49,982 nucleotides of DNA. Source: Catajapyx aquilonaris. Lineage: Eukaryota. How positions within the stretch are numbered: position 1 is the first letter of the stretch; the number at the start of each line of letters is the position of its first letter. A program made the translations under genes and the position numbers. Below are positions 6,001-49,982 of the stretch, piece by piece. The notes below the pieces were generated by a model. It ran no database searches. It was given only the letters and a program-made list of their open reading frames with translations, and had not been told where the DNA came from. Location of the stretch: assembly GCA_000934665.2 (NCBI GenBank), contig KZ538744.1, positions 1 through 49,982 of the forward strand. The letters run 5' to 3'.

Positions 6001-6202
6001 GCGGCTTGGAGGGGAGGACTTGGAGAAGGAGGAAGAAGCTCACCCAGAAGAGGGAGAAAAGGATCAACAAGACACCCCTCTTAATAATTCTGTAACCCCC
6101 ACAGATATATCCCTATCAAACTCCAATCCATCTACCCCAGCAGTGGTCAAGGAAAAAGAGGATGATGACTGGGTCGATGTTAAGGATGCGGATGAGAGCT
6201 AA
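69..6202 (+). CDS. Unidentified multi-exon protein (5' end probably upstream of the window); Ser/Thr-rich, two coiled-coil segments, Pro-rich stretch, acidic C-terminus
   Basis: Phase-compatible GT-AG exons read by eye: 69-121 and 498-532 (tentative), 1334-1635, 3767-3829 (weak acceptor), 4899-5357, 5786-6202 (TAA). AATAAA signals near 6645 and 6681. Heptad-like segments VENRLGVIESQVKEISSRLESV and VRLEKMEEVLRRVEKRLDQW. No family recognised. Confidence 0.6.
676..1087. mobile_element. Tc1/pogo(Tigger)-type MITE
   Basis: TIRs CAGTGGAGCATCGATTATCCGAACA / TGTTCGGATAATCAATGCTCCACTG flanked by TA on both sides. Confidence 0.8.
1683..2008 (+). mobile_element. tRNA-derived SINE
   Basis: A-box (TGGCCGAGTTGG) and B-box (GGTTCAATCCC) head; A-rich tail; 15-bp TSD AAAGTGCTCTGATCA at 1668-1682 and 2009-2023. 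Confidence 0.85.
2127..2628. mobile_element. Kolobok-like MITE (TTAA TSD)
   Basis: TTAA|AGGGACACTCCACTCAAAATA...TATTTTGAGTGGAGTGTCCCT|TTAA; long imperfect TIRs plus an internal inverted repeat; same family as 20819-22365. Confidence 0.8.
2767..3424. mobile_element. Tc1/mariner-type MITE with long TIRs
   Basis: TA flanks; about 120-bp imperfect TIRs (CTTGGGTTAATCCATAAGTC... / ...GACTTATGAATCAACCCATG); second internal inverted pair at about 2912-2957 and 3133-3179. Confidence 0.8.
3893..4819. mobile_element. Fold-back mariner derivative made of two inverted copies of the transposase 3' end
   Basis: TA|CGAGGAGTGATCAAAAAGTAAGG...CCTTACTTTTTGATCACTCCTCG|TA. Arms of about 430 bp (3893-4321, 4391-4819) each encode mariner catalytic C-terminal motifs (LL..NxRP, PHTPYSPDLALTDYHLFRALK). 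Confidence 0.92.
4899..5357 (+). CDS. Internal exon of the unidentified gene (coiled-coil region)
   Basis: tttcacag acceptor and AAG|gttaga donor; 459 nt open, phase 0/0; lies within ORF 4875..5429. Confidence 0.75.
5786..6202 (+). CDS. Terminal exon of the unidentified gene
   Basis: ttcttcttgcag acceptor; open to TAA at 6200-6202; ends ...EKEDDDWVDVKDADES. Confidence 0.75.
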   Translation, partial: EVEPWWESTSTPRSTPIPPPPPLPCASPMVLPGHIFHVFPRTPSPGCSPSRRLRIVSDRIKDAEQLLIRAERRLGGEDLEKEEEAHPEEGEKDQQDTPLNNSVTPTDISLSNSNPSTPAVVKEKEDDDWVDVKDADES

Positions 6203-7322
6203 TTCAGACTGAGTTTGTGAAGGACCAAAGTCCATAGATCAATTGCAATGGATGACAGGCATAATAATTCCCATGTACCTGCATATATTTTTAATTGCCA
6301 TAGTTGTTTAAAAAATGTTTCCATATCAGCCTGAAGTTGGGATGTGTATCTGAAGTCAAAAGTTTTCCAGTTTGGATTTATTTATTGTTTGTGCAGGTAA
6401 ATTGTGTGCCTCTTTGTGACTGTACCCAGTACAGGGACAAGTTTGAAAATGCAATGAAATTGGTATTGCCTTGTTCATGTGGACTATGATCCTTCTTGTG
6501 CTCACAATGGTTCTTGAACAGTTGCCCCGCTTTGTGTAACTTAATTCAGGAATCTTGTTTTGTTATGGCCTCGGGCCTATGAATATCAGTTTGCATTTAA
6601 AAACACTGCATATGCAGGATTGTTTATGTAAGTTATGCAAAAGAAATAAACGAATAATATGTGATATTCAGTTACGCACAAATAAAAGTTGTGCAGTTGC
6701 TACAAGTTCCTTGATTTATTATTTTATTGACACGACCAGTTGGAAAAAGAGGTTTTATTAACTTTTGGTATACTTGCCCAACACCAATGAAGTTCGCCTA
6801 GCATGAAAATCACCTGCAAGTTGATGTTACAAAAATACGAATTAAGTTACTTGAGAACGAATCATGATTTAATTGCACAATGTATTTTCCACGTATCTGT
6901 GGACGTAAGCTGGAATGATAGTGTCACAGGTCAATCACAGATGTGGAGAATAGGGTAGGAAAGTGAATGGTAGCTGCTGACTGCCATGTGGCCTGTTTGT
7001 TCTTTAACATGCAGAAGAATAAGTACTCAAGAGGACTCAACACCATACGGTATTCAACTGGGATGTAAGTAAGTAAGTTCTTTATTTCCGATTGCGGTTT
7101 CCCATTTCAACTGGGATGTCCACCTACTGATATCATGTCATAATTTGAAAGGCCCAGGCCCATTTTACCTGTAACTGGTCTGCCAGATTCCTTTTTCAGT
7201 TATTCAGGTTATTAATAAGATGACCCAAGGTAAAACATGTAAGGGGGGGAAATGTCACCCTTTAGTGAAAATGAAATTTGAAATGGATTTGTTAATCAAC
7301 ATCTGCAGGAAATGCTGCTACC

Positions 7323-10300
7323 TCAAAAGTCCTGAAATTGCCCTGCAGAGGATGTAAAGTTTGGCTTTCTCCAGACCGCTCCAGACACATGCCTCGTGAA
7401 GTGGGGCAGATGAAGTGGGGTCACTTTGACAGGGGAATGGGTTTTTTATTACTTCACAAATATTGTGCAATGAAATTCCAAATGTTGCCCCAAAATCTAG
7501 TGTACAATATTCCACAGTTTTAAAAATATGTTTTTGTTCTTTTTGGCAAAATAGTTATGTGAGAAAGGTCATGAAAGTCCACTACGAAATGAGGGTTAGC
7601 TTTTCAAACACAGAAGATCCAATTGGCTACACTGTATTTACCTTTGTTTGTAGGTTGACTTGTGGAATGTTCTGCTAGTGGAGAATTTCCTGCCATAGAT
7701 GAATTATTAGTATCATATAGAGTGCCTACACGAAAATGTCTGTGGTAGACCAGCTTCTGCATGCTATTTTACGTAAGTAATGATGCTATTTCAGATTAAC
7801 CCTGGAACTGTGACATGCCTGAAAGTTATGGCAACCGTGACATGGGGTCTTTTAGGACCCCATGCCATATTTCAATTTTTATTAATTTTATATAATACTT
7901 TTCAATGTATTGACTACATGCAATCATTCTTTGAACAATGCCTAAAATGATCGCTAATTCAAAATAAACGTGCACTTCCTGTTACATACTTTAAAAAAAT
8001 GGCAAACAGTTCATTGTAATTGTAATTCTAATGCATTTTCATTCCTTTGGGGTCCTAAAAGACCCCACGTCACGGTTCCAGGGTTAATACAAATCACAGC
8101 CCTTGTCTGCGGGCACAGTGCTTTGGGCCTCAAGGAATACACTAAGATCATAATTACGATTGTTTTGTCCATTGAATGCAAGATAATTCTTTGAACCCCT
8201 CTAACTTACTGCATTATCTTACAACTTGTTAGCATATGAAAGGTAATATGAAAAGCTATGCAGGGTGTTTTGTACCAACCAAATTATGCTGCTGTATTCC
8301 TGGGTCCCAGAATTCAAAGTCATGAATTTAGAGTGCACCTCTGCAGGTAAATTATTGAAGGTCTACTGTCAGAAGCAATCATGACATTAGTTTGAGGTTA
8401 AAAAATTGAAACAATACAACTCATAAAATGATGTGACTATCACTGGTGCTACAGTATCATACCATTTGCATATGTCACCAGTGTGAGTTAGGTGGTGATG
8501 CAGTGTAACTTGTTGATCTGACAAAAGGACGAATTCAACATTTTCATAATTTTACAGGAGAGCCAAAAGAAACAGTTAAACGCTCTACAAATACATAGGA
8601 TGGCATTTTGATTTTCCGTTCTAACTCTGATGCCACTTGTCCCATGTGTTTGCTGTTTTGTCAGAATATGACCCAGTGCAGAGGCCATAATCCAAGTTAA
8701 GCAAAAGTGTCGAATTCATCCTTTTGTCAGATTAACGACGTCCTACTTGAACTTGGAAGATCATCGTCCATCATCTGGGGTGCCAGAAAATAATGAAGAG
8801 GAGGTCCTTGCTACTCTCACATGACCATTACAAAAATTCTGGAGGCTGGTCAGGTACTCGCAGAAATGGGGGAGGAGGTAACATGGAAAATAAGGAAAAC
8901 TAACCAGAAGAATCATCAGTGTTATGAAAATCTTACACTGTAACGTTAGCTTTTGATATGACCAGCTATAAANNNNNNNNNNNNNNNNNNNNNNNNNNNN
9001 NNNNNNNNNNTATCAAATCGCTCACATGTAAACGCACCTTTATGGTTATGCCACTGGGTAGCCAAGAGCCAAGAGCCAAAATGCAGATAAGTCGTTGTGT
9101 TGGACCCATGCTCTCGTGGGGTCCATGTATGTGTAGATAAATAAGATAAATAAGATAAATAAGAAAACTCTCCACTACAAAAATGAACTGTTGCCATTAA
9201 AAAAAATTATATAACAGGAAGTGCATGTTTATTTTGAATTAGCGATCATTTTAGGCATTGTTCAAAGAATGATTGCATATAGTCAATACATTGAAAAGTA
9301 TTATATAAAAATTAATAAAAATTAAAATATGGCATTGGGTCCAAAAGGACCCCACGTCACGGTTAACATCACTTTCAGGCACATCACAATTCCAGGGCTA
9401 ATTCTTACCAGATATGAGAGTGAGGATTACAGACAGGTTCATTATTACTGAATCAGCAATATTCACACAATAAACCCAAGGAAAGAAATGTGTAATACAA
9501 TAATTCAAAAAGCTGCTTGAAAGGATGCTAATTTTCTGCACCAGCCATCATTATTTTGCACCTGTAGCCCAGGATTGATTAAATTGAAAAGGTACCCAGA
9601 CATGGTTACCAGTAGGCCCATGGTTGCACCTGCTCACCAACCGTTGTGTCATAAGGACAGTATGGGTTGGATTGTTGAACTTCACTCACAGCACAAGTGA
9701 CAATGTATGAGTTGCACACATTTTTTCATAAGTTTTCCCACATACAAATTATTCCATTAACAATTGCGCATCATGGCTGACCCTTTCTGAAAAACTCTCG
9801 GAGTTGTTTTGGGTCAAGGAATCGCCTGACCACTAAATGACCTATAATATCAAATGGCCTTGAGTGAGCATACGATCCATAAAAAAAGACCGTGTACGGC
9901 AAGTTCATCCTGGCTGGCATGCAACCGCATCCTTGTCCAACGGACGGCATAACAAGCAGGCGCAAATCGGAAAAAAGTGGCCCATATTGTCGTAATTTTT
10001 TCAAAATAACTCGTCAATACACGACATCGAATATCACTCGCATAATAGGAATCAATATTTTTCTGCAGCGACTGGTCACAGTTACTTGTAACCAGCACAT
10101 ATAATTTGAAACAATAGGAACAATAGCGACAATTTTTTTGTCGTTTTTTACGCAAACTGCGTGCATAAGGTGGCTCGTCCAGTGACCTAAAGACATCGAC
10201 ACCTTTTTGGTCGCGAGCTCGGGCAATGTTTGGACTGCAGGTGGAAGTGGTCACCAAGGTAACCACTTCGCCCCCCACAGCTCGATCCTCACCTCCCCCA

Positions 10301-10377
10301 TACCTATACCTCTCCAACTCAGTACCCTACCATTGGAAAAAGTTCAGGTGGTTGTTGAGGTCCATACCCTACCGCAT
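7323..10377 (-). CDS. Candidate small spliced gene (micro-protein of about 54-64 aa, or lncRNA) divergent from CFAP36
   Basis: Exons 10365-10331 (or 10377-10373), 10234-10203, 9841-9782, 7689-7642, 7342-7323 join in phase with GT-AG; minus-strand AATAAA near 7210 and 7083. Some donors are weak; no homologue recognised. Confidence 0.35.
7800..8083. mobile_element. piggyBac-like MITE
   Basis: TTAA|CCCTGGAACTGTGAC...GTCACGGTTCCAGGG|TTAA; other copies at 41278-41559 and about 9180-9397. Confidence 0.85.
8511..8738. mobile_element. Small MITE-like element with about 30-bp TIRs
   Basis: TGTTGATCTGACAAAAGGACGAATTCAACA versus TGTCGAATTCATCCTTTTGTCAGATTAACG; TSD not clear. Confidence 0.55.
8973..9010. 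other. Assembly gap (N run)
   Basis: 38 N; abuts the right end of a Harbinger-type MITE (ATCAAATCGCTCACATGTAAACGCACCT|TTA) of the family seen at 29026-29185. Confidence 0.99.
9180..9397. mobile_element. Partial copy of the piggyBac-like MITE, inverted relative to 7800-8083
   Basis: Near-identical to 41350-41559 (GGAAGTGCATGTTTATTTTGAATTAGCGATCATTTTAGGC...TCCAGGG). Confidence 0.75.
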
Positions 10378-10379
10378 TC

Positions 10380-10746
10380 TGCGCGTTTGTGTACCGAAAA
10401 TTAGGGTAGAAATATAGGGAATCAGTGACGTCAATTGCCCAACTAAATTATTGTTTTGGATGATTTGGGCACACAGCGATCCTTGAGATTAATCGCGGTG
10501 TGCTACTGAATACTTGTATATAAGTAATGATTCGAGAGCATGGGTGTCGTTGCAGTCCTAAATAATTCAAATAGAACGTGCGCGTCTTGTTGAATTCGAC
10601 GTTGCCAGGTTGCTTATTTTTCCACCCAACACCGCCTCATTATAGCGGTATCCAATACACAAGCCCCCAATACCAGTGCGGATTTTCTAGTTCGCAGAAG
10701 TGTTCGTGTACAGGTCTGAAGGTGCAGAAGGGTACAGCAGTCAGTC
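10380..10746. promoter_or_regulatory. CpG-rich, probably bidirectional promoter with a CRE palindrome and an RFX/X-box-like site
   Basis: TGACGTCA at about 10427-10434; GTTGCCAGGTTGC at 10601-10613 (contains CCTGGCAAC on the - strand) about 140 bp upstream of the CFAP36 ATG; locally high CpG. Confidence 0.5.
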
Positions 10747-12150
10747 ATGGGAGGTGACGACAACTCGGAGTGGGTGTTCGATTCCCTAGTGGGATTTCTT
10801 CGTGGTCCGGTCTGGCACGTTCCAATACTCACATTTATCGAAGAAAAGTCTCTCAGTAAGTTCAATCCAACAGTGACGGTCATTTGAAGATAAGTTTTTT
10901 TCACACTGTGACTCGTGTTCTCAGTTTTTGAACCTGAAGGCGGTCCGGAAGAGGAGTATGCCAAGGTCCACGAGCAGTACCGCAACCTGGTAAGTGCAAC
11001 ATGTGTTTTGCCAGGGGTATGCTCGGACTAAGTGTAAGAAAGTCTTAATAATCGAAAATTTCGTACCAAGGACATACGCATTTTACTACACCAATTGAAC
11101 CTTTCGGTTGTAGGTTGACTACATGCTGGGTAGCTTCATGGAGGACCTGGGTATCACTCCCGAGCAGTTCGAGGAAGCATGTGAGAAGGCGTCTCAGCCA
11201 GTTACGGCCAAAGTGCACCAGGTATGGCCTAGTTTTGATGACATGTCCTAGTTTGTAACAGTGTTTTATAGAGTCTGTTCGAGCAAGTCTGGGCAGCCGA
11301 CGATCAAGAGATCTTCCGAAGGATGATGGCCCAAAAGAACATTGAGCTGCAGCTGCAGGCTCTGGACATTTTGCAACAGCGGTACGGGATCACTCCACAG
11401 GCTTTTCTGCCCGGTGACGACCCTCTTCCAGATGACGAGGCCCGGATCATGGAGGAAGTGATCAGGTCTGTGCTTCCCTTCCAGCTCGATTCTTTTTACT
11501 GACCACATTTGTCACTTAGGCGCTCGTTAGAAGAGCAGAGCCGCCCCGATGAAGAGCTAGAAAAGGCCATGGCCGAATCTTCCGAGACTGAGCGCCACCG
11601 CCTGGAATCCGTCCACAAAAGTGAGAAGGTCCGCATGGAGGAGGCTGTTCGTATGTCGCTGAAAACGGCTGACCCCGAAAAGTAAGCGCAAATGACCCCA
11701 GCTTTGGCGGCCACTTTTTAACTCGATTGTTGCAGGGCGGAGGAAGAGACGGAAGGAGAGCCGGAGGAAGTGGTCGAGGAAGAGGCCAAGGAGGAGGAGG
11801 AGGAAGCTGTGGTGCTGCCCGAGGCAGAGTCCAGCAACAGCGCTACCGATGACATCCGAGCGGAGACGAAGCCCAAGGGCGACATAGACCCCGAGGAGTT
11901 ACGACGTCGTCAGGAGTACTTGCGAGGTCAGCGAGATAAGCTGCTGGCACTGAAACGGGCCGCCCGTGCCGCGGCTCTAGAGGAGGCCAATCCCAGGGGC
12001 GGAAGCAGCAGTCGGCCCAAGTCAGCCCGAGCTGCCAAGTCCGCCCTGGACCAGTCCCAGGAGCCGCATGCCGGGCTGGACCCCAAGACTCTGCAGGCAC
12101 GTCGGGCCCTGGCTGAAAGGCTCAAGGCAGAAGTCGTGGGAAACCTGTAA
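10747..12150 (+). CDS. CFAP36: Cilia- and flagella-associated protein 36 (CCDC104/BARTL1), 350 aa
   Basis: Exons 10747-10855, 10925-10989, 11114-11221, 11272-11465, 11520-11681, 11736-12150 (1053 nt, all GT-AG, in phase). BART-like N-terminus EWVFDSLVGFLRGPVWHVPILTFIEEK...FRRMMAQKNIELQLQAL; C-terminal ELRRRQEYLRGQRDKLLALK and RRALAERLKAEVV are typical of CFAP36. AATAAA at about 12281. Confidence 0.93.
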
Positions 12151-17770: not shown

Positions 17771-35356
<17,586 letters not shown>

Positions 35357-36009
35357 GGCTGTTGCTTCTCCAATCCCACTGCCACTTTCACTCCCACCTC
35401 CCTCTCCTTCTCCTCCTCCTCTTGCTATTCCTTCCTCTTCCTCCACCTCCTCCTCCTGCGTCCGCTGCCCCTTCCACCCCACCTGGCCCTGTCGAGGGCC
35501 ACTTTCGTCACTGCCTCCCTCCGCCTGGGGCTGCCTGTCAACGCCTCTCCCAGATGACTGGTCAGGCGCAGGTCCAACGCGATCGCTTTCCTGGTCTCTA
35601 CTACATCCCCGCTGTAACACATCTGGCAAGAAAATATGAAGTTGTGTTACTCACTGTGCACTATAAGGTAAAGTCACCACACACGCATGTTGGTTCACAT
35701 TGAATATAGAAACGTCAAGCTGTCTCACTTTTTTGCATGACCTGTCTTATCAGAGCTCTGGGTGAGATAAGGTTGTCTTGGATATAGTGATAGACTAATC
35801 ACGTGAATGTAGGATTGATCTGAACAGCAATATAAATAACATGCATTTTAACAAGAAATATTCAGCGTTGTTGCTAATGATATAATCAATGAAAATGTAT
35901 ACCTGTACAAAAAACCCGAAATAAACGTTGTCTACCACAAACAGAAAAAAAAGAGAAACAATTATGCCCCTCCTTAGATTTGGTATATATACACACATAT
36001 TTCTTATAT

Positions 36010-36335
36010 TTGCTACCCCGTGCTAGGGCCATTGGCTCTCTTAGGGGGGTGGGACACCACCATATTTTCTGTATTATTTTTCCAGTTTTCTTTGAACTCT
36101 GGTGCAGGGACATTAGGTAAGGATTTGAATTTTTGTGGAGTGGACATGGGTTCAAGTGCATTGTCTCAAATTGGACTATGTGCAGTGCCCCCAGGAAGTT
36201 AGGTTGCCAGACACCTCCAAGGTGCAGGTCAGATACCCTCCTGTCGCAGGCAAAAGGGATATCCCAGACAGGGATCACACGTGGTACCTTTCACTCAGCA
36301 AGCCGAGATGTTACATCTCGGCCACCGCACCCCCC
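36010..36335 (-). mobile_element. Diverged copy of the 1683-2008 SINE family
   Basis: Reverse complement matches GGTGGCCGAG..TAAC..GGCTTGCTGAG...CAGGAGGGT.TCTGACCTG..CCTTGGAGG...AACCTAAC. Confidence 0.65.
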
Positions 36336-38633
36336 CAGATTTGGTGTATTATACCTTCATGTACTAACTTCTGGCCGAATCAATTGGGAGAGAAATTAAA
36401 CATAGCAACAAATTAGATTTTAATTTCTGGAATCAAAACAAAAGTGGATAGGTTGCCATGATTACTTTGGATCACATGCAGAAACAACTGGAAACACAGA
36501 ATGTCAGGGTTTAACTTTGATTACTGTAGGAATAGGCCAGTTTACAAATGTCTCATTCAGGAACACGGAAGAGGCTTCAACTATCCTACACCAAGGACAA
36601 CATGGGATAAGAAAAGTTCGACTTGGAAAGCGGGGTAGTTTAGCATGGAATAAGGAGGAAAAATCGTAACATAACTCAATATGCCAAACAGCGCCTCTGC
36701 AGCCAATCAATGTCACTAATACATCTACCCCAAGCTATAGTCCCCGGCGGGTTAACTTGGCAGTCCCCCCACCCAACACTCCCAGCCAATGGCGTGCTTG
36801 GATTGGGATGGGGGGGAATGGAGGAGTCGAGGTGGAGGGGGGATGAGTGACATTCACCGGAACATCCGCAGGATCAGTCGCCGGATACTTCGCCGGAAGC
36901 TAGGCCGGATACTTGAAACCGTGTGTACAAATTGTCATTAAAGGTTTGCTTTAAGATGTGCGTCGCAACAATTCACATCATCAATATTTCCAAGTTTAAT
37001 TGTCATCACAGTAGTCCTTAAGAGGTCAGCGTGGCGGAGGGATGTGACGTAGAAGGCAGCGGGAGGTAGGGCAACGAGGTTGGGGCTAGGGGGTAGAGGA
37101 GGTAAGCAGCGCCGGGGAGAGGCGGGGGGGCAAGAGTTGCCAGAAACCCCCACCCTGACACGTTAGGAGGAAATCTACTATATATTTTATCACCAAACAA
37201 TGAGGCAGTTTTATCATTTCCTGGTATCATTATTTTCTGCTTTAGCCTCAGCACTGCCCTTTCAATGATTCTTTGGAATGTTCTTTTTGGCATTTGAGGT
37301 GCTACCACATTGTGCCCAGGAATAGCAGAAAATAACTTCAAACCTGTGTCTGAATGAGACTTTTGATGGACATTCTTATTTTGCCTGCATCCAGGGAATG
37401 GACACATTTCTGAATATGACCCACCAATTATGACCATCCATCATAAGTCCTAATGAGAGAACTGTACGTAAGGTGTAGAGCTCAAGATTACATATTAGTG
37501 CCACACATCTCATGACTGCAGACACAAATAGCTCTCTGCCCCTGTTCAACACATGACCCATTCACTTAAAATGGCCCCAAATTACATTTTCATCTGTCCT
37601 TGTATTGATTATTCTAAATGACAGACAGCCTTAGTTGCTTTGGCTAATTCCCTCTCAAACAAATTCCCTTTTCACCACCCTTTTTCACCATTCATATTAA
37701 ACTTGTAGCCCTAACTACATACAACCAAGCTATTACATTTCCCTAGCCAACACGAGCAGCAATATTCAGCTGCAAAATGCAGCTCTAATAAATTGGCCCT
37801 GATACAAATGGGTAAGATGCAGACTGCTACTGTGCCTGGGCAATCTCAGTAACAGCAATTTATCAATTTTCACGACAGATAGAGTAAATGATTTTTTTTT
37901 TTTTGGACAGTGTTTCAATTATGAGAGCAAGCAATAATTTGGAGGAAAAAAAAAAATCCCAAAATTGTCTGCCTGTGTCAAAACTAATGTGGCCCAGACT
38001 GACTGAAACAGAATGAAGTAATAATCCAGTGTTTTGTCTGACCCCTGAAGATGGTCTGCACCATACAAGGTAAAAACCACCCATATCAATCACATACAAG
38101 TGCTTTTTTTTAAATCGCTAAATTTTGTCGTCTACGATGCTTAAAAAAAAAAAAAAACGGGAGCACATCACTTATTAATGTACTTGTGAGAATTTTGAAA
38201 GGAAGAAAGAAAGAAAGAAAATCACCCCACTTTATACCAACCGGCCGACTCCTCAAGTGTACTGGCCCCACGGTCAACTGCATTTTACAATGGCATGCCA
38301 CGGAAGTAGCAGTAATACTGCGTATAGTAATTCTCCAAAAGGACCAAAAACTCCACAATGCACAAGTTTATGCTGCACCCAGGGTATGTTACAGACAAGT
38401 GTCACTGTAGGTGACAAACCTATTGCTGACTAAATTATTCACATAACTACGCACATACAACTTAAAGATTCAGTCAATTAAATGCTCAAATCCTGAACCA
38501 CTGAACAAGTGACCTTTCTGCTCGTGTAATCAAACAAAACTCACAATCCACAGTAGACAACTTGTCATGCCCATGAGATGACTGATTTTACTTCGCTCTT
38601 TAACAGGTAGGCTACATCACATTGAAGGTTAAC

Positions 38634-38945
38634 GGGCAGGAGGAGTGGCGCTGCGGAGACATATGCACCCACAGACGGACCGGTCCCAGGTTTGATCCCA
38701 AGCCCAGGCTTTCCCCACTTTCATCTCGTCCAGTTTTGGGTCATCTCTGGGGGGATTCCTTAAGACTAACCACCCAGCGGAACTCACAAAATGGCCAAGC
38801 AACAACATTGCACTGGCACCTTCTCTCCCCCACCCCTGCCGGCGGACCTGGGTGCTATGTTCAAAAAGGTCCAAAATGTACTGTATACCCAAGGACAAGT
38901 AAAGTTCCGTGCTACATATCTTGCAATGAGGTCAGCACTACCCAG

Positions 38946-39010
<65 letters not shown>
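38634..39010 (+). mobile_element. tRNA-derived SINE with (TAT)n tail
   Basis: Head similar to 46364 (GAGTGGCGCTGCGG...GGTCCCAGGTTTGATCCC); ends in about 22 TAT units at 38945-39010. Confidence 0.7.
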
Positions 39011-39012
<2 letters not shown>

Positions 39013-40061
39013 TTATGGCTGACTGGAACTGCTGGTCAACCTCATGTACTAACAAGAGTAAGCAGTAGGTGCATAGCCATTGCATAACTTCTCAACAACA
39101 TGCAGTATATCGAACTAATGCAACAAAATACCACCCACGTGTTGTACCAGAGCACCACACCTCATCATGAGTGTTTGTGGTTTATTTACAGCACCACAGT
39201 ACTTTGCATTGCCTTGCTCTTACCTCTGCTCTTCATGGTACACGAAAGTACCACAAAAAGTTTCTGCTTCAAAGCAGCTCCATAATAACATACTTAAAAA
39301 GTCATGGCTATGTCTGCTTCTGCACATGCACACTGGCACCAAGCTGAATGGTAAATTCATGGCTCCCCCAACAGGCTAAAGTAAGGGATACCTTACAGGG
39401 CAAGGTGCTACACCACCTCAACTTTCACCTGCCTGACAGCCACCTGTGATTTATAACTCGCTGGGCAGCCAGGTCAGAGGGAACAATTGGCCTTGTTCTA
39501 AACTGACCAATGTAGTATGCAACTGCAGTGTCACCCACACTTGCCACGAACAACCAAATGCCCCACGGAAAGCACTTGCGCACAAGACATGCCACTGCTC
39601 AGCACGACGTGATCGTTGGACCGGGCAGGGTACCCTTCCCTTAACCAACACAAACTGCCGAGCACTTTTGCACCACCCTTTCTGGCTCGCTTCAAACGGA
39701 TCCACGTCTGTCCCCTTAACCCAACATGCCCTCAGTTTCTCTTTCTCCCTGCCTGAATTCCTTCCCACCCCTGGCTCCAAACCACACGTCGGCGTCCAGC
39801 ACCCGCACACAGGCCGTCCCACAGGCACAGCAACTCTCACGCAGGTTCCCAGCAGAAACAACAAACACAAGCCACACACCAATCATTGATGAAACACCGC
39901 GGCATCACTACAAGTAGCGGCCGACGCAGGGAACAGATCGACGGCGCCTTCCCAGCACTCTCCTTCACTCCCATTCCTCTCGCCCTTGCCGCGCACCATT
40001 AGCGCAATCTCACCCACACAGCCAAACACGTTTCAACTTGTTCTACTAACTAGTTGACTAC

Positions 40062-40460
40062 CTATAAGATCCAGTGTTCCGGACCTCAAAAAGCATCAAC
40101 TCGGCTCGCCATCTTGGATTCATAACAATACCGCTACGGGGTCCGCTGGGCGAATCCCACGGACTGCCTCCCTCTCCCTGCTTCCCCTTCCACCCTCCAC
40201 CCTCCCCTTCACGTCCCAGTCCACCCGCTATCCCCCGCCGCAACTTTCCAACTAGGAGGAGGAGGCGGTGGCTCTTGGAGGACTCATTTCTACTCCCTTC
40301 AACATGTTCTAAATTTCACCAAAATTACGGGAGCTGCTGCAAAGAAGGTGCTGATTAAACGGTTAAATTATTTCAGGTATTGATTTTATGCGACGATGTT
40401 GCACTAGCGGGGAAGGTGAGAGAAGTGTGTGACGTCACATGTGTGGTGACATCACGCTTG
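40062..40460 (-). promoter_or_regulatory. Proximal SMEK promoter / non-coding first exon (CpG-rich)
   Basis: CpG-rich island at about 39900-40460; GTGACGTCAC at about 40429-40438; YY1-like CAAGATGGCG on the - strand at about 40107-40116; donor TATAG|gtagt at about 40061; short uORFs. Confidence 0.55.
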
Positions 40461-40936
40461 CAGATTTGAAATTGTCGCAACTACAATATATATGGGACGT
40501 ATTTGTTTTTCAGCTTTCTAAAATAATTCTTATTCAAATATATGCATGAGTTAATACGAACTTCTAAAGATTTTACTCCAGAGCAGCTGATATAATTAAT
40601 GTTATATCGGCCCCCTGTCGGTTAATACTGTAAATTTGAAGTAGGTGGCGTTTTTTGGCGCCTGTTTTGTAATGTTCTGCCCAGTTCCTGCCTCTGAATG
40701 GCTCTGAATCATGGTCTAATACCAAGTGGGTAACAACTCCCCAAAAAAGTGTACACCAGATCCTGGAACCGGGTGGTTCCAGGCCGGTTCCAGACCTGTT
40801 CCAAGCTGGTTTCAGAGAGACCCTGTACACCTGTTCCATGAAGTTGTTACCCCCTTGTCCACGCCCTTGTCTAATACTCGCTCTGAATATTGAACAAGAG
40901 CTATACAAGAGCTTTAATTGCATTGTGTCACCGGCT

Positions 40937-41238
40937 TTTTTTTGAGGTGCAAGGGAGGTGCCATACACGCCGGCGTGGCCAGGGCGTCTGGAGTAGTGGC
41001 TGGTGGCGAGGGGGGAGGGGGGGGGGGCTTGTTTTTGACGAAATACAGTATTGCATAGTGTAATATTTAAATTTAATATTGAGTGTCTGTTTCTGAGGTG
41101 GGCAGGAGTGGGGGGTGGGACGAGTTGTTTTTAGGTTTATTCTCATGAGTTTTATTAGTTCATATGTTGGGTTAGCTTGCGTCTCCCTTCATCGCTGACT
41201 ACCCCTCATAGGGAAATGTCGTGTTGTTGTTGTTGTTG
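40937..41238 (+). mobile_element. Retroposon 3' fragment with (TTG)n tail
   Basis: 14-bp TSD TTGTGTCACCGGCT at 40923-40936 and 41239-41252. Confidence 0.7.
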
Positions 41239-41277
41239 TTGTGTCACCGGCTCATTTTTTCACATAGTCTTTATTAA

Positions 41278-41559
41278 CCCTGGAACCATGATGTGGTGTC
41301 ATTTAGGACCCCCAAGGAATTAAAATGCATTAAAATGATAATTACAATTAACTTTTGCCATTTAAAAAAGTATATAACAGGAAGTGCATGTTTATTTTGA
41401 ATTAGCGATCATTTTAGGCATTGTTCAAAGAATGACTGCATACAGTCAATACATTGAAAAGTATTATATAAAAATTTTTAAAAATTAAAATATGGATGGC
41501 GTCCTAACAGACCCCACATCGCAGTTGCCGTAACTTTCAGGCACATCATGGTTCCAGGG
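41278..41559. mobile_element. piggyBac-like MITE (family of 7800-8083)
   Basis: TTAA|CCCTGGAACCATGATGTG...CACATCATGGTTCCAGGG|TTAA. Confidence 0.85.
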
Positions 41560-41779
41560 TTAAACATATGAAATGAGCTGTAACCTACCAGGGACTGAGT
41601 AGCCGCGCAAATGACATCAAACCAGTGGATTTAGGAGAACATGTTGGAAAAATTACTGGCAAGAGATTACTACATTCATATAACAAGTCCGCACTTTTTG
41701 CTTTGTAATGCCTTGAAGGATAATAATGTTTTTAGGCCATGCGCAGTCAACAATGTCCTCGAAATGGCGTTGGCGAAGG

Positions 41780-42120
41780 GATTATTTCATGGATCTGGGT
41801 TTGGGTGCTTCCACACCCGCTGTACTCCCCTGGCCTGGCCCTCAGTGACTTTCACCTGTTCGGATCCATGAAAAAATCTATTCGCCGACACCATTTTGAG
41901 GATATTGTTGAATGCGCGCAGTCGTCCGGGATTGGGTGCGCCACACCACCAAATAGTGGTTTTTGGAGAGCCTGGAGAGGGTGCCATACCCATACCCATG
42001 ATGCCAGTGCATTTGGCTCCAAGAGGATTCTATCGATAATGTGTGCCTATCTGCCGACCTGCATGGGCCCTGTATTTGTGGCAAAAAAATAAATTGTAAA
42101 TCATTTTAGTATGACTCTCG
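41780..42120 (+). pseudogene. Degraded mariner transposase 3' fragment
   Basis: VLPHPLYSPGLALSDFHLFGSMKKSIRRHHF motif; TIR-like end TGACTCTCG|TA; enclosed by about 130-bp inverted arms at 41612-41742 and 42189-42320. Confidence 0.8.
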
Positions 42121-42321
42121 TATTATGGAAAATTTCCTGAGACTACTGGAGGACAGAGTAAATTATTTTTTTAGTGTGTTAGTTGATGGCATGACCTAAA
42201 AACATTATTATCCTTCAAGGTATTACAAAGGAAAATGTGCGGACTTGTTATATGAATGTAGTAATCTCTTGCCAGTAATGTTTCCAACATGTTCTCCTAA
42301 ATCCCCTGGTTTGATGTCACA

Positions 42322-43463
42322 GCCGGTGCTGGTGGTCTGGTGGTTAGCGCGCTCGCCTCTAGACCCAAAGTTGTGGGTTAGAACCCGGCCGAGGTCAGTG
42401 ACTTTTCTCCGGGTGGTAGAAAAGTGAGAGTGCACCTTCCTTCGGAGGGGAAGTAAAGGCGTCGCACAGAGGGGCAGAATCGAAACCGGTCGGAAAATAA
42501 TTGTTTTTTGAACTTTTTTTTTGGTCTCAGAAGTATGCGATATAGATTATCAGATGACCGGAACTTACTTATCCGAAAAAAAATTGCCTCTGTGGTCGTC
42601 CCGAACCTGTGCAGAGGTCACGAAAGTCTACCTTTTTTGCGTGGGCAAAATGTTTGAGAGGCGTGTGCGTAGTGGCTTAACTTTCACGGGTCGCTATGAG
42701 CGGTGTACATCTCAATTTTGCCAAAACAGCGGTATGGATGTTATTGAATGGATCTTATAGAACGGTAATAAACATTTAATTTCACCAATGAAGTATCAGT
42801 AGGCTCTAAAAATCGGGATGGATCATAGGCTTACACACAAAAATATGACCGCAATTCCAATATAAATATTGAGATACAAATATTATCCCACATTATCCCA
42901 GAATAATTTTTTGCTACATGTGTAGAGGAAAATGTGGGGAATAAGAGCAACCAGAAATGGTTTGCGCATATGGGCGCATTTCGTCACAAGAGTCGGTTTC
43001 TTTTTGCAAGAGACCCGTCATTAATGCAGTTGCTATACAATTCTGCGACAACAGATAATCTTGGTACCGGTACTCTGATGAATGAATCTGCACTCGTATT
43101 ACTAGTTGAACAAACTTTTACAGCTATTACACTTATGAAAAAAAAACTTCCACTAGATTATGTGATATTCAGTGCCCGTATCTAACATTCGGCAATTCTT
43201 CCCCTCTCGCGATCTATTGGAACAGGCTAAAACACCCTTACTTCGCATTTAAATTCAATATTGTGACATACAAGAAGTCGTATGATTTTTTTCCGACACT
43301 TTTCGAATCTGCCCCACTGTGCGTCGGTCCCGCATGCTTGTGACATTGCACGAGTGCACGTTAAAGATCCCCAGAGTGGCCAAATTTCCAGGAGCAGGAC
43401 CACCCCCTGGCGTCGGTGTTGAGCCTAGCGGCAGAAATAGGCTGACGTTAAGCACCCACTAAA
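42322..43463 (+). mobile_element. tRNA-derived SINE interrupted by a Transib insertion
   Basis: Head TGGTCTGGTGG / GGTTAGAACCC; the body resumes after the insertion (GGTCCCGC...CACGTTAAAGATCCCC); 14-bp TSD GGTTTGATGTCACA at 42308-42321 and 43464-43477. Confidence 0.85.
42465..43321. mobile_element. Non-autonomous Transib element
   Basis: Termini CACAGAGGGGCAGAATCGAAA / TTTCGAATCTGCCCCACTGTG; 5-bp GC-rich TSD CGTCG at 42460-42464 and 43322-43326. Confidence 0.85.
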
Positions 43464-45499
43464 GGTTTGATGTCACACAACATAATGAGACGCCCAAGTT
43501 ATGTAATGTACTGTACATCAACCCTACCCTCCCCTACCCAAAGCTAATGCCGTTAAATTTATTTCCTGCCCTCATCTATTATTATTATTACGCAATATTT
43601 GAGCTAACTCGAAGTTGCATTAATAAATAACTATCCTTTAAAAAAAGACAGGTGCCAGAATGCAGACTGAAGGTTGACAAACCAAGTTTTTAATTTCTGT
43701 AGTAGAAGTGTTATTTTTAAAATAGCTAATACATATTGTGTAATATTGTGAACACACAGATTTTGTGTTTGGTTGGTGGTTCATTCTTTGGAAGGGCAAG
43801 AGGTTCACATTTCACAGGTCTAATGGCATTCCCAGGTGAGACACAATGTCATTTTAGCAAAGGAAGGAGTGAACAAAATCACCCCTTGACCTCCTGCATA
43901 AGTTTCTGCATCCATACAGTTGCCTGTCATTAAGAAGAGAGCAAACAATCTCTAAGGTGGAATATTACTTATTTTGTACTTTTCAGCAGCAGCATCAACA
44001 GTCACGACAGTGAGCATAATATTATTGTGGTGATTGCAGTCATTCAATGTACTAGCGATTATTTTGTCTCCAATAAATAGAAAACAGCATTGTTTCCCAT
44101 GTAGGCCTATTTAAACATGTTTCTCAAAACCGGTTTTGAACTGGGTGAAATTTTTAAACAGCTAACTCCAAAATGCAGATTTTTACTTCTCACAAGGGAA
44201 CTGTAAGTGCTGTCAATGGAGTTGCTGTATGAAACTTGGCACAATAATATAGGCAGGTAAGTTATTAAACAAAATGCAAACTGTTTCGGCAAAGCTCTAC
44301 AAGGTCTAAAGTTATGACCTCTCGATGTCAGCCCAGACAGCTTACCTTACGAGCGAAGTTTCAGATATTGCACTTAAAAAAAAGCAGACATTTTATTACA
44401 TCACTGGAAAGGGATAATTACTCTGATTACAAAAAGGCCCCAAGTCACTGGAGGAAGATTTTAAAAACTATCAATTAGTCTAAGACTGCGATTAGTCGAT
44501 TTCCTTACTGCCTCACGATTACAACTAAAACTTTGGTATATGCAATGGGACAATGCCCTTCTACCTAGCCGACAAAAAAATATTTTAAAAAACAGGTTCC
44601 CTCTTTCTCTCTCTCTTTATACCACTTTACACTGTCATATTATACGTAAGATGTGCTCGCTGTACAGACTTGTTTAGATTTGAACACATTGTCACAAACA
44701 GTTGTACACAGGGTGAAGGGAAACTCACGCCCAATCGCCAGGTAGACTTATAGTACTTATAAAACTAATATAATGCAATTAATTTTGGGCGCCGTTGCAT
44801 AGTTATAATGCGTACGGAGCCGTGAAAGTTTTGGGACGTCACGTCCGTTCCGCCAGCTTTGATGAAGCAAAAGTCAGTTCGAGGGCCTCCAGTCCCTTGC
44901 CTTGGTCCCATAACACATCGTCCATGTGCAAAAGGCGATCAAATCCCGTCAGAGGAATGGGTTATGTGGCTGCTAAAAAAAATAATTGAATCAGTTGTTA
45001 CGAAAAGGCCCTACGTGTTGTGAACCAATTTCGACCAATTTCTGAGAAAAACACAAAAAATTGTCCTACCCATTTCCATTATTTTTTCCTTTTGGCGAAG
45101 ATTTATCATACGCAGCAGAGGAATTTGACTGATGCTGTTTTCATTCACCACGCGCGTTGAAACCAAGAAGCAACATGACAGTGTTAGCTCAAAAATTTCA
45201 AATTTTGAAGCAACGGAGAGGGGCCCGTGGAGGACAGTGTTCAATGCCAACATACTACTTGCCCAACACCAATGAAGTTCGCCTAGCACGAAAATCACCT
45301 GCATGTCGATGATACAAATACGAATTACTTGAGAATGAATCATGTTTTAATCACATAACTTATATGCTAATGAGCCACATGGAAGAGCAATGTTGGGGCG
45401 AGATATCAATGCATTTGTCAGTGGAACAAGATGAATACGACAGTATTTATTTAGCGCGCCGGGGGCAATGGAGTTCGCCCAGAGCGCTAAATGTGCCAC

Positions 45500-46310
45500 A
45501 AAGTTCACCTAGAAGCAGGTGACATCGCCATGGGCAGCAATGACGCCCTCCACACAACACGACATGTGTTGAATGAGCTCTGGCACTCGGCTAAAGTGAT
45601 GGTGTCCCGAACCTTCCGTAGTTTGGCCCTCAAGGGATGCCTTGGTGCAAGGATGTGTCCTCGGAAGTACCTTCTTAATGATTTTCCAGTCTATCTCAAT
45701 CGTATTGAGGTCCAGGCTGCTCCATGGCCACGTAGAATGTTAATCCCCTTGTTTTTGCTTTTGCTGTTTTGGCAAGCTGCAACGTCCTGTTGAAATATTC
45801 TTTGACATCCGGATGTAAGGTTGCTATTGAGGGCACACACAGCGGATGGTCTCTCAAAATCTCCTGAAACATGGATGTATCGATGGTGCCACTGATGCTG
45901 TGAAAGTTGCCAAGGCCGACACTACCCATGCATCCCCACACCATAATGCCGTGTGCATATGCACACAGCATTATGGTGTGGGGATGCATACATATGTTTG
46001 ATGGTTCGAGTAAGACATTGGGATGGTACGCCTCTTCCTTTGTTTGCAGTACTCGATTATGGATGTCCCTGTACTGACTAATTCATCGCTAAACTTGACT
46101 AATTCCACATCTGATGTGCCCAATGCTTCCATTCCTTCTCCCAAGCAAGTCTTTTTCCTGTTCCAGTGCCATCAAGAGTGGTTCCTTCTTGCCCTATTGT
46201 CAAGAGGGCAGGTCCTGATCTCATTAATTCCCCGTTAGTCTTTGAGAAGTTACGCATAAAGTTCATCTTCATGTCACGGATGCAGAGTCGACAGGTTGTT
46301 GTGGGGACCA
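45500..46310 (-). pseudogene. Degraded Tc1 (DD34E-type) transposase
   Basis: GIMVWGCMGSVGLG (Tc1 MVWG motif) and a downstream W..SLDLNTIE-like motif; frameshifts and stops. Confidence 0.75.
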
Positions 46311-46363
46311 CCTTTTGGGTCACCTCTGACCATTTTAAAGTTGAAGCAACCTCTGCTCTGAAG

Positions 46364-46707
46364 GGGAGGCAGAGTGGTGCTGCGGTAATGTATGCGCCCA
46401 CGGCGGATGTTAAGGTCCCGGGATCAAATCCCGCCCGGGGACACCCCCTTCATCTCGTGCAGAGTTCAGAGTCACCTCTGGCTTCGTCTCGGGTGGTATT
46501 TCCAACAGACTCAACCACCCGGGGGAGTTCACTAAAAATGGCCACATTAAGACATAGCACTGCACCTTGCACATCCCCTCCTGTCATCCTGCCCATGCCG
46601 GGCGTTTCAAATGAATAGGCACAAAATGTAGGGTACCTCAATAAATAAAGGTCTGTGCGATATGCCCCCGTGTGGGGGCGTGTGGGGGCGAAAGCACATT
46701 ACCCCAG

Positions 46708-46773
<66 letters not shown>
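46364..46773 (+). mobile_element. tRNA-derived SINE with (TAT)n tail, inserted in a hAT remnant
   Basis: 16-bp TSD AACCTCTGCTCTGAAG at 46348-46363 and 46774-46789. Confidence 0.88.
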
Positions 46774-46774
<1 letters not shown>

Positions 46775-47086
46775 ACCTCTGCTCTGAAGTATTTAATACC
46801 ATGTGTACTATTAGGCCTACCTATTTATGTGAAGCAAGTTTTTCGGCATTAACGTCCATGATAACAAAATTAGATCATTGACTCTGTGTTGAGAAAGATC
46901 TCATGCTTAAATTGACGCCGCTTGTCCTGAATATTGTGTGAAAGAAAGAAAACTTGCCCATCACATTAACTAGTTAGTGCCCGCATTTACGATACTGTTG
47001 CTAGGTAACAGGATCGGAGTGGGGGTACAAACTGTCTTCACATATTTGAAAAGGGGTGCGTGACAAAAAAAGTTTTGGAAGCACTG
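46774..47086 (+). pseudogene. hAT (Charlie/Buster-like) transposase 3' remnant
   Basis: PTYLCEASFSALTSM dimerisation-domain motif; terminus AAAAGTTTTGGAAGCACTG. Confidence 0.75.
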
Positions 47087-48587
47087 TTCAATTTTCCAAT
47101 GCTATAAGCTGGATTTGATGCCAATCAGGCAAGCAATTTGAGAAAAAATAATTTTTGTATTTTTTCCACCTGCAAAAATTCAGAAGCTACTTACTCCAAT
47201 AGCAATTTAGCTCGTTGTAATCAGAGTTATTATCCCTTTCCAGTGATATAATAAAATGTCTGCCTTTTTTGATTGCAATATCTGAAACTTCGCTTGTAAG
47301 GTAAGCTTTCCGGGCTGACATCGAGATGTCATAACTTTTGACGTTGTTGCGCTTCGTCGAAACAGTTTGCATTTTGTTTAATAACTTACCTGCCTATATT
47401 ATTGTGCTAAGTTTCATTCAGAAACTCTATTGACACCACTTACAGTTCCCTTATCAGTATTCTCAAGAAGGAAAGCGGCTACATCAGTGGGGTGTAAACT
47501 TGTGATCTCTATAATCTGGTAAGTTGTGGATCCATGGGACTGTTGAAAGAGTCTGTGCATGCTTTACTTGATGGGGTGCCAAACCCTCTGTCGGAGGAAT
47601 TCTTGCAAAAATTGCCATGGTTAGGGCAAATTAAATCATGTGTATATTTAATATATCAATCTTTCTTTACCACTGCCATAAAAACAGTACATCCACGCAC
47701 ATAAATATTCGAAGGGGTGATGATGTCAGTTGGTCGAGTTGGAGCTTTAAAAAAGCAGAGTATAATAATAATGAGGTATGGAATGACACACCCCCCCCCC
47801 CCCCCCNTCCTGACCCCCCACCCCCCCCTCCTGCTCCACACACGTACACACAAACATAGCAGCTCATGGTAAAAGGGAAAGTTCTGTTTTACTGAATATT
47901 GCAAATCTACTCCTGCCTTGATAGCAGGAGCAGGCATGTGAATGCAACCCACGAAAACCACCTCGACAAAGCCTGCCATGATGGAATTAGGAACTGCTGA
48001 TATGAAGCCTCTTCTTTTTCCCATGCATATTCAGAGAACTATCTATATATTTTACTTCCACATCTAAAGTGTGCCTTTGAAAATGAAATGGCTGGGTAGC
48101 CAGATCATTATATATCCTATCAAGGCAGAAATATAGCCTACCCCTGCGTTTATTTATTTGGCACAATATTACCAGCTTCAGGGAGTATAGAATAAATATG
48201 ATGTTTCAAAAGTATTTTTCGACCCCAAAAATGGGAGTAGTAGTGACTTCAGATTTGGCCTCACTTGAGGTCACAGCCAAATGGTCACCAAGAGAGTGCA
48301 CGTTACTACCTGGGCAATGTCCGGTATCCAGCTAGTTATAATATTGTATGATACGTACGTACATGTAATGCCCCACACGAGTGGAAGCATGGGACCAGGA
48401 CTGGATATGTGAGATCCACCTGGCTCTTTCCCATTGACTGATGCATGCTGAAACCCATATCACTCTGATAGCCATATAGCCAAAGCAACAATTCCCACTC
48501 AAGCCCCACATGAGTCACATCCTACATATGGCATTGCAACTACTTGGTCTATAGAAAAGCCTACCCCTCTACTGTAAATGACCTTAC

Positions 48588-48708
48588 CTAATAATTTTAT
48601 CATCCAGATGTCCACTTCACTCCAATCCATGTTGTCAATCTCGTCCTCCTCGAGATCTCTGATGTCCTCGTCCCAGGGGCTACCTGGCTCTGGGTTATTA
48701 CTGTCCAT
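48588..48708 (-). CDS. Candidate distal first coding exon of SMEK (N-terminal extension)
   Basis: ATG at 48708, 40 codons plus G, strong donor AG|GTAAGG; phase 1 matches the open frame of exon 35622-35215; CpG-rich region immediately upstream. Confidence 0.55.
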
Positions 48709-48779
48709 CAGTAATGATGTTCACTGGACATGGACTGTCCCTCGAGTCGGGATTAATTAAAACCTAAGGTTAAAGACGA

Positions 48780-49210
48780 GGAATTGTTCGTGAAACCCTC
48801 GTCCGAGATGCCCACCGGAATGGCACCAGGGAACAATTCTTATTCACTCGCTCCCTCCCCTTCTTTCCCCTCCCCTCCCCTTTTCCTTCGGATTCGAACG
48901 AAAGCGGCCATTTTGTTTTTTAGGTGTGAGCGGCGCGGGGCGGCGTGGAGTCAGGCGACCAGTCCTCTGCTTCTAACCCGAATAAACCGGCACCTTGGGG
49001 GCCATAGCCGCATCCTCCGGTGATTGACCACCGCACCAGGGAGCATACGTACGGTCCTTGGCCGATGCCTCGGCCACCGACCACCGAGCAGTGGAACATG
49101 ATTGACTACAGGTCCAGACGACCGCCACAACCTGTCTGACGATATGTGCTAGCTACACCTTGGGCTACACCTGACGCATCTGACAGTGAGGTAGGCAGTG
49201 ACGTATGTTA
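48780..49210 (-). promoter_or_regulatory. CpG-rich distal promoter
   Basis: High CpG density; YY1-like CAAAATGGCCGC on the - strand at about 48904-48915; GTGACGTA at about 49198-49205. Confidence 0.5.
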
Positions 49211-49982
49211 ACTTGTAGTGCAAGGTTGAGGGAGAACAACAAAACATGTGCAGAAATTTTGCACCCATTTTGTACCACTTTGTACCACCAAGAAAAAGTA
49301 TTGCACCCCTATACAGTTAGAGTTATTATAAGGAAACGAATTTGCGCTTATGGAGTGCAGGTCACTCAAAGTAACGGTTTCTCTGGCCTATCAGATTCTC
49401 CTCATTTTGCACCATTTTGCACCACCAACATCGAGTTTTCCATCCCTCTCCTTATATGCGAAAAAATTGCACTGAAAGCAGCTCAAAGTTTCGCGCGGCA
49501 TTCAAATTGTCATTTTTGGAGGGCACCAAAAAAGTGGTACAAACCACTCCAACTTACATATTTTTTATGAATTAACGCTAGCATATGAGGCCAAAGCAGG
49601 AGAACAGCGCTGAGGAGGAAGACCTGTTGTCCTGCAGGACTATTCAATGGGGATCTGGTAATAATCGTGGCCCTGCCCACAGTTTCTGATGCAACCAGAA
49701 AATGGTACTGACAATGGAAGTGTAAGTGTTGTCCATGGAGTTTCTGAATGAAACTTGGCACAATAATATAGGCAGGTAAGTTATTAAAGAAAATGCAAAC
49801 AATTTACGCGAATGCCCACAAGGTCAAAAGTTATGACCTCTCGAACTCACAAGGGACACTTTCCAAGGTCTCACCGATTTTCTTGAAATTCGGTACATTG
49901 GTAGGCCACCCCAAGGGATGAAAAACGCACCTAAAGTGACCTCTCAAAATGACCCGGTGACCCCTTTTTGGGGGCTACCAAT

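Follow-up and report, generated by a model that had tools for sequence, protein, structure and literature searches.

A candidate distal coding exon that may extend the N-terminus of PP4R3 in Catajapyx aquilonaris

Does the gene for PP4R3 (SMEK, Falafel), regulatory subunit 3 of protein phosphatase 4 (PP4), encode in Catajapyx aquilonaris only the usual protein that begins at its EVH1 domain, or also a longer form whose translation starts in an exon 13 kb upstream? The question was raised by a preliminary description of a 49,982-nt stretch of DNA (positions 1 to 49,982 of contig KZ538744.1, assembly GCA_000934665.2; hereafter the window), which proposed that a distal promoter and first exon add an acidic extension to the subunit. 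We followed up this proposal computationally. By three partly independent sequence tests, the distal segment is most likely a genuine alternative 5′ coding exon. Whether an extended PP4R3 isoform is encoded appears evenly balanced to us; the case for it rests on the statistics of this exon, an open leader in front of the canonical start and a matching splice phase.

The PP4R3 gene and the extended reading frame

The minus-strand gene in the window is an arthropod-type PP4R3/SMEK/Falafel orthologue. By tblastn with database PP4R3 proteins, seven minus-strand exons were located between 35356 and 19941, and consensus splice sites were read at the exon borders. The first of them, the coding part of exon 2 (35215–35356), carries the canonical start, MTDTRRR, and the first 47 EVH1 residues, and ends at 35215 with the donor GATG|GTGAGT. 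The further exons lie at 30368–30313, 27721–27274, 26926–26652, 25578–25267, 23310–22747, and 20262–19941. Exons 2–8 together hold 706 codons and one further base. Two C-terminal exons of roughly fitting size can be seen as well, a Gly-rich one within 18301–18795 and the last one, which is acidic, within 17774–17899. The total of 964 residues given earlier for the extended protein is roughly in keeping with these exons.

Canonical residues 1–48 showed 100% identity to many insect proteins and to residues 1–48 of the database protein P0044, and the identity of the canonical protein to the best database PP4R3 was ~80–81.5% over ~710–740 residues. The best full-length matches were transcript-derived proteins together with stick-insect, locust and damselfly proteins, identities that place the source among the arthropods, probably outside the insect orders sampled. 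Hundreds of the PP4R3 matches to the exon-2 open reading frame (ORF) carry the EVH1-like domain PF22972, to which exon 2 alone gave a partial Pfam match (16.2 bits, cut-off 27) covering about 31 of 100 profile positions. The SMK-1/PP4R3 domain (PF04802) and the C-terminal helical-repeat region were recognized through full-length PF04802 proteins, which aligned by tblastn at ~80% over the seven exons. The canonical start pairs with residues 1–2 of PDB chains 4wsf and 6r8i (Drosophila and human EVH1; E values 4e-23 and 4e-22). Because these residues align at the ATG at 35356, which has a G at −3, the canonical protein starts at EVH1, and the statement of the preliminary description that PP4R3 proteins normally start there is borne out. 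According to PMC7776573, the EVH1 domain of PP4R3 recognizes FxxP and MxPP motifs.

The candidate distal coding exon (48588–48708, minus strand; exon 1 below) opens with an ATG at 48708–48706 and runs for 40 codons plus one base. It thus ends in phase 1, as had been claimed, and is followed by GTAAGG. This donor (48582–48587), preceded by TAG, agrees with the consensus at 7 of 9 positions, and its hexamer is that of the real donor of SMEK exon 6. An in-frame TGA stands five codons 5′ of the distal ATG (48723–48721), and a second in-frame ATG within exon 1 (48630–48628) has a strong context, with A at −3 and G at +4. Exon 1 and its CpG-rich block are present as one copy within the window and match no Pfam family above threshold, and exon 1 carries no repeat or transposon signal. 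The preliminary description had itself foreseen the objection that the exon might be derived from a transposable element.

Between the distal donor and exon 2 lies a putative first intron of 12,965 nt (35623–48587), in which fragments of repeats and transposons are found together with two (ATT)n microsatellites and a second, proximal CpG-rich block. Its acceptor consists of a pyrimidine tract followed by CAG (35625–35623), so that exon 2 runs from 35622 and begins with a 266-nt leader (35357–35622; 45% G, 11% T) holding 88 full codons and a junction codon. As reported before, this leader has no stop in the frame of the canonical ATG and needs a phase-1 donor; the other two frames have one and six stops. 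A programmatic join of exon 1 and the leader gave 129 codons without a stop, leading into the canonical ORF, and the acidic 129-residue extension that had been predicted was thereby reproduced. It comprises 22 Gly, 20 Glu, 14 Asp, and 12 Ser residues and has a net charge of −23. The four runs of N that mark assembly gaps in the window (at 8973, 30009, 33531, and 47807; 41 bases in total) touch none of the exons discussed, the last of them falling in the putative first intron.

For the extended isoform to arise, exon 1 would be spliced across the 13-kb first intron to the acceptor at 35622, and the 266-nt leader, otherwise untranslated, would then be read in frame, so that a strongly acidic Gly/Glu/Asp/Ser-rich tail of 129 residues would precede the EVH1 substrate-recognition domain. 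Transcripts from the proximal CpG-rich block (39600–40400), without an in-frame ATG, would give the canonical protein from the ATG at 35356. We infer the joining of both exons, the use of the distal ATG (or of the better-placed one at 48630) and the alternation of two promoters.

Coding signature of the distal exon

To score coding potential, a codon log-odds model was built from 711 PP4R3 exon codons against the non-coding trinucleotides of the window, and a second model from 399 codons of the neighbouring plus-strand gene. In its frame, exon 1 scored 0.27 bits per codon, compared with 0.00–0.32 for real exons left out of training, and its other two frames scored −0.4 and −0.9 with two and five stops, respectively. 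The score lay within the top 1.3% of 776 stop-free non-coding windows of 40 codons. Since exon 1 and the training protein are both acidic, composition was controlled by dinucleotide shuffles, of which 9 of 4000 matched the score under the SMEK-trained model and 2 of 4000 under the neighbour-gene model. The composition of exon 1 by codon position also followed that of the known exons (p = 0.006, 40 codons), in which position 1 is purine-rich, position 2 A/T-rich and position 3 C/G-rich.

A scan of both strands of the whole window yielded 224 donor-like sites and 672 site-phase combinations; in 63 of these, an ATG-initiated ORF of at least 30 codons extended into the donor. The 11 with the highest codon scores comprised three exons of the neighbouring gene, six PP4R3 segments and two adjacent donors of exon 1. 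The six PP4R3 segments are the training set, and their rank is circular; the three exons of the neighbouring gene lie outside it. The next candidate scored 0.184 and all others at most 0.108. Within 35650–49982, exon 1 was the best coding-like segment of the minus strand (20.1 bits vs 12.1 for the runner-up).

The leader gave a less uniform picture. Of 5000 dinucleotide shuffles of it, 3.6% left the ATG frame free of stops (p = 0.036), and its 5′ 55 codons reached 21.6 bits, rank 14 among the coding-like segments of the whole window on both strands. Its composition is not foreign to the protein, as the Gly-rich coding exon further downstream in PP4R3 indicates.

Weighing the extended isoform against other readings

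The best-surviving alternative holds that the canonical protein is the only product, that the leader is an ordinary G/purine-rich 5′ untranslated region (5′UTR), and that the distal segment is either no exon or a non-coding first exon with a regulatory upstream ATG. We consider this possible but rather doubtful. The observations that weigh against an extended isoform, several of which also count in favour of this alternative, concern the leader, the join, the distal start and the lack of relatives.

With 30 T in 266 nt, stops are rare in the leader: a second frame contains just one, and at least one frame was open in 11% of the shuffles. The codon score of its ATG frame is not significant, since 20.6% of shuffles matched it under the SMEK model and 6% under the neighbour model, and the +1 frame outscored it. 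Because a non-coding frame scores as high, the codon score is unreliable in this GA-rich leader. The periodicity of the 5′ 55 codons was not significant (p = 0.12), and the 3′ 33 codons form a GGA/GAG-like purine repeat, in which strong periodicity need not mean coding. The leader also contains an out-of-frame upstream ORF (uORF) of 65 codons (35425–35622, minus strand), which starts at the first base of exon 2, and an ATG-TAG start-stop (35606–35601), as are often found in regulated 5′UTRs; in the 5′UTR of the canonical transcript, the two could regulate its translation.

The phase fit is common. Of the 29 donor-like sites (agreement with at least 7 of 9 consensus positions) upstream of exon 2 on the minus strand, 6 gave an ATG-open phase-1 frame, and 3 of these frames had at least 40 codons; phase compatibility was consequently rejected as evidence by itself. 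The two codon models rest on few codons (711 and 399), all from acidic proteins, exon 1 being acidic as well. The distal ATG has a weak context, with C at −3 (G at +4). Upstream of it are a seven-codon uORF (48708–48731, minus strand), whose ATG is at 48731–48729 and whose TGA shares one base with the distal ATG (TGATG), and a more distal ATG at 48911–48909; depending on the transcription start site, both upstream ATGs may precede the distal ATG in the transcript.

No relative of the extension was recovered. A word-indexed search for homologues of exon 1 among proteins of 71–2000 residues returned one candidate and none that scored. The unspliced ORF from the distal ATG, 69 codons to its stop, had no phmmer match among 1.84 billion representatives. 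There was no usable Atlas match for exon 1 or for the leader peptide, and no Pfam match of exon 1 above threshold (DUF6900 at 13.4 bits, cut-off 24.1). The 135-residue exon-2 ORF matched 1355 longer proteins and 383 of near length; among the matches listed, only its EVH1 third was covered and the extension part was unmatched. In 67 matches with at least 12 residues before the start, the upstream parts resembled the extension no better than shuffles did (exon 1, 18.1 bits vs a shuffle 95th percentile of 18.5; leader, 25.0 vs 25.8). The 240 proteins fetched include none from this species or a close relative of it, the best identities being 91.7% over 60 residues (among 142 proteins) and ~81% over full length, and the lack of homologues is therefore weak evidence either way. 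A literature search found no paper on a PP4R3 isoform with an N-terminal extension.

Unrelated open leaders before the same start are common in other taxa, and in other animals many open PP4R3 5′ leaders look like artefactual read-through of the 5′UTR. More generally, PMC9789052 and PMC11623489 caution that numerous N-terminal extensions are under no selection or do no more than introduce disorder.

What the canonical-only alternative explains poorly is exon 1. Chance rarely produces such codon usage and periodicity (the 9 and 2 matching shuffles in 4000 and the p value of 0.006 given above), and within the window no ATG-to-donor ORF other than true exons attains its score. This alternative also needs three things to fall together: an open leader (p = 0.036), a fitting phase and an upstream exon that looks coding.

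Several individual matches were set aside. P0001 (200 bits, 1047 residues) contains the PP4R3 N-terminus three times in tandem and is probably an assembly or prediction artefact. P0231 stood out by 87% coverage at 47% identity, and its upstream part is unrelated to the extension. An acidic, Trp-containing piece precedes the start in P0122 and P0123, but a relationship to exon 1 was rejected: neither was among the eight best matches listed for exon 1, the best of which did not exceed shuffles.

Among the database proteins, in-frame upstream ORFs before the EVH1 start were conserved in three unrelated lineage-specific families. P0132, P0135, and P0145 share a basic N-terminus of ~80 residues; about eight proteins within P0192–P0201 and P0210 (P0192, P0193, P0195, P0197, P0198, P0200, and P0210) share a piece of 24 residues; P0122 and P0123 form the third group. 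The PP4R3 gene thus seems to have acquired N-terminal additions or conserved leader elements repeatedly, and the conserved upstream ORFs of other lineages thus provide a precedent for N-terminal additions to PP4R3. Like the extension considered here, they and the named predicted isoforms, including P0102 and P0116, place in-frame residues before the same start. Unlike it, several of them lie in the start's own exon, not in a distal exon, and their sequences are unrelated to it; none is experimentally validated as far as we have seen.

Under a second alternative, the distal CpG-rich block drives a separate lineage-specific transcript, from a small protein gene or for a long non-coding RNA, that is not joined to exon 2. 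The CpG-rich block and the good donor do point to a transcribed first exon, the 69 codons of the unspliced ORF offer a small product, and a peptide without relatives is what an orphan gene would be expected to encode. Further exons for such a gene were sought on the minus strand between exon 1 and exon 2: no other coding-like segment was found in 35650–48588, and the ORFs in that interval had no Pfam match. A separate multi-exon gene is therefore not apparent there. Both the phase match and the open leader would moreover be coincidental, and we regard a separate transcript as unlikely.

That the distal ORF is what is left of an earlier gene or a mobile element after decay, without present function, is very improbable. 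Fragments of repeats and transposons do abound in the intron around it, but the segment itself occurs once in the window, and very large protein sets, element-encoded proteins among them, contain no homologue of it. It also adjoins a CpG-rich block and has kept an ATG, an open frame and a consensus donor.

Compared with the PP4R3, SMEK1-2 and Falafel proteins already known, the canonical product here is an orthologue with the same EVH1 start; the solved and commonly annotated proteins begin at EVH1, whereas the candidate isoform would have an acidic extension of 129 residues before it. The proposed arrangement is like that of alternative-first-exon proteoforms, in which one first exon brings an in-frame ATG and the shared leader is translated, and the other first exon is non-coding. 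It differs from them in that its support comes from genomic geometry and coding statistics.

Candidate promoters, the predicted tail and the rest of the window

CpG content was scanned in 79 windows of 400 nt, with thresholds of GC >0.5 and a CpG observed/expected ratio (o/e) >0.75; the o/e of the whole window was 0.54. Eight of the 79 windows exceeded both thresholds, at 34600–35199, 36800–37199, 39600–40399, and 48600–49199, the last three blocks lying 5′ of exon 2. The distal block (48600–49199; GC 0.53–0.59, o/e 0.84–0.86) is a candidate distal promoter. The proximal one (39600–40399; GC 0.51–0.58, o/e 0.80–0.90) may represent the promoter of the canonical transcript or its non-coding first exon. 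Both CpG-rich regions of the preliminary description are thus present, although patches of low GC content in which CpG is not depleted also occur elsewhere in the intron (for example 42200–43600, o/e 0.9–1.2), a further point that counsels caution about the extended isoform. The reading of the blocks as promoters is suggestive only.

In the proximal block, the longest open frame was not coding-like (score −0.09; periodicity p = 0.45). A proximal exon had been placed near 40062–40330. Its donor at 40062 does join out of frame, in phase 2, as had been described, but is weak, agreeing with 5 of 9 consensus positions, and the boundaries of that exon were not supported. The best proximal donor-like sites, at 39444 and 39429 (7 of 9 positions each), have no ATG-open frame. 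As the proximal donors carry no in-frame ATG, the canonical protein would result from whichever first exon is used there. The idea that the distal promoter and exon are a duplicate of the proximal region was rejected, as the two showed no similarity beyond a best match of 17 nt.

An ATGGC-centred element is found on the minus strand in both CpG-rich blocks, as AAGATGGCG in the proximal one (40107–40115) and as AAAATGGCCGC in the distal one (48903–48913). In both, it adjoins GGGGAGGGG-type purine tracts, the regions being otherwise dissimilar. We take these elements to resemble promoter-proximal motifs of the YY1/Pho type.

The 129-residue tail, if made, is probably disordered. A pattern scan of its 129 residues found no FxxP or MxPP pseudo-substrate motif. 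The acidic W-x-x-V core noted in the preliminary description is present once, as W-S-E-V at residue 29 in acidic surroundings, and is the single [WFY]xx[LIV] core of the extension. In this it resembles LC3-interacting region (LIR) motifs, which have such a core in an acidic context; it agrees with the relaxed core pattern only, and such four-residue patterns are frequent by chance. The flanking positions of W-S-E-V do not fit the stricter published LIR pattern. The amphipathic helix proposed across the exon junction coincides with the top helical hydrophobic moment (0.49) but is marginal, that value being matched by 5% of shuffles of the same residues.

Any function assigned to the tail is speculative; most plausibly it would be a disordered acidic appendage that modulates localization or access to EVH1. 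A more specific version, in which promoter choice switches PP4 substrate recognition in this arthropod lineage and the tail, through its W-x-x-V core or its charge, either tethers the phosphatase to Atg8-family proteins or gates the binding of FxxP and MxPP motifs on EVH1, we hold to be improbable. In the gating variant, the tail would fold back onto the basic start of EVH1. If it did exist, a promoter-selectable tail would be a simple route to two states of localization or substrate access for one holoenzyme. The general significance is most likely limited, because the extension appears lineage-specific and of low complexity and unrelated upstream ORFs of their own are found in other taxa; the extended form, if real, would be a lineage-specific variant of a well-known subunit. 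The practical value lies in annotation: where transcript data of the species exist, a longer isoform should be looked for at this locus.

Scans of the complete window for Rfam families and tRNAs returned no matches. A second gene, on the plus strand at 5100–12150, is convergent with PP4R3. Its strongly coding-like exons are located at 5942–6196, 10912–10989, 11117–11188, 11275–11490, 11515–11682, and 11740–12147; in Pfam, one of them came close to the cut-off for the ARL2-binding BART domain (21.2 bits against 23). With its acidic tail, it looks to us like a CFAP36-type protein.

Repeats are spread over the window. Two long (ATT)n microsatellites lie at 38947–39010 and 46715–46775, and a dispersed repeat of ~140–190 nt occurs in three copies around the distal exon (44189–44381, 47265–47459, and 49706–49849). 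An inverted-repeat element with 131-nt arms (41612–42319) encloses an ORF (41736–42092) with a mariner-like C-terminal piece; the likeness to a transposase was seen by eye only, and Pfam gave no match. Another inverted-repeat element, with 468-nt arms, is found at 3864–4848. Within a PP4R3 intron, a plus-strand ORF at 28129–28410 gave a sub-threshold match to zf-RVT, the zinc-binding region of reverse transcriptases (22.1 bits, cut-off 27.5), and is probably a retroelement fragment.

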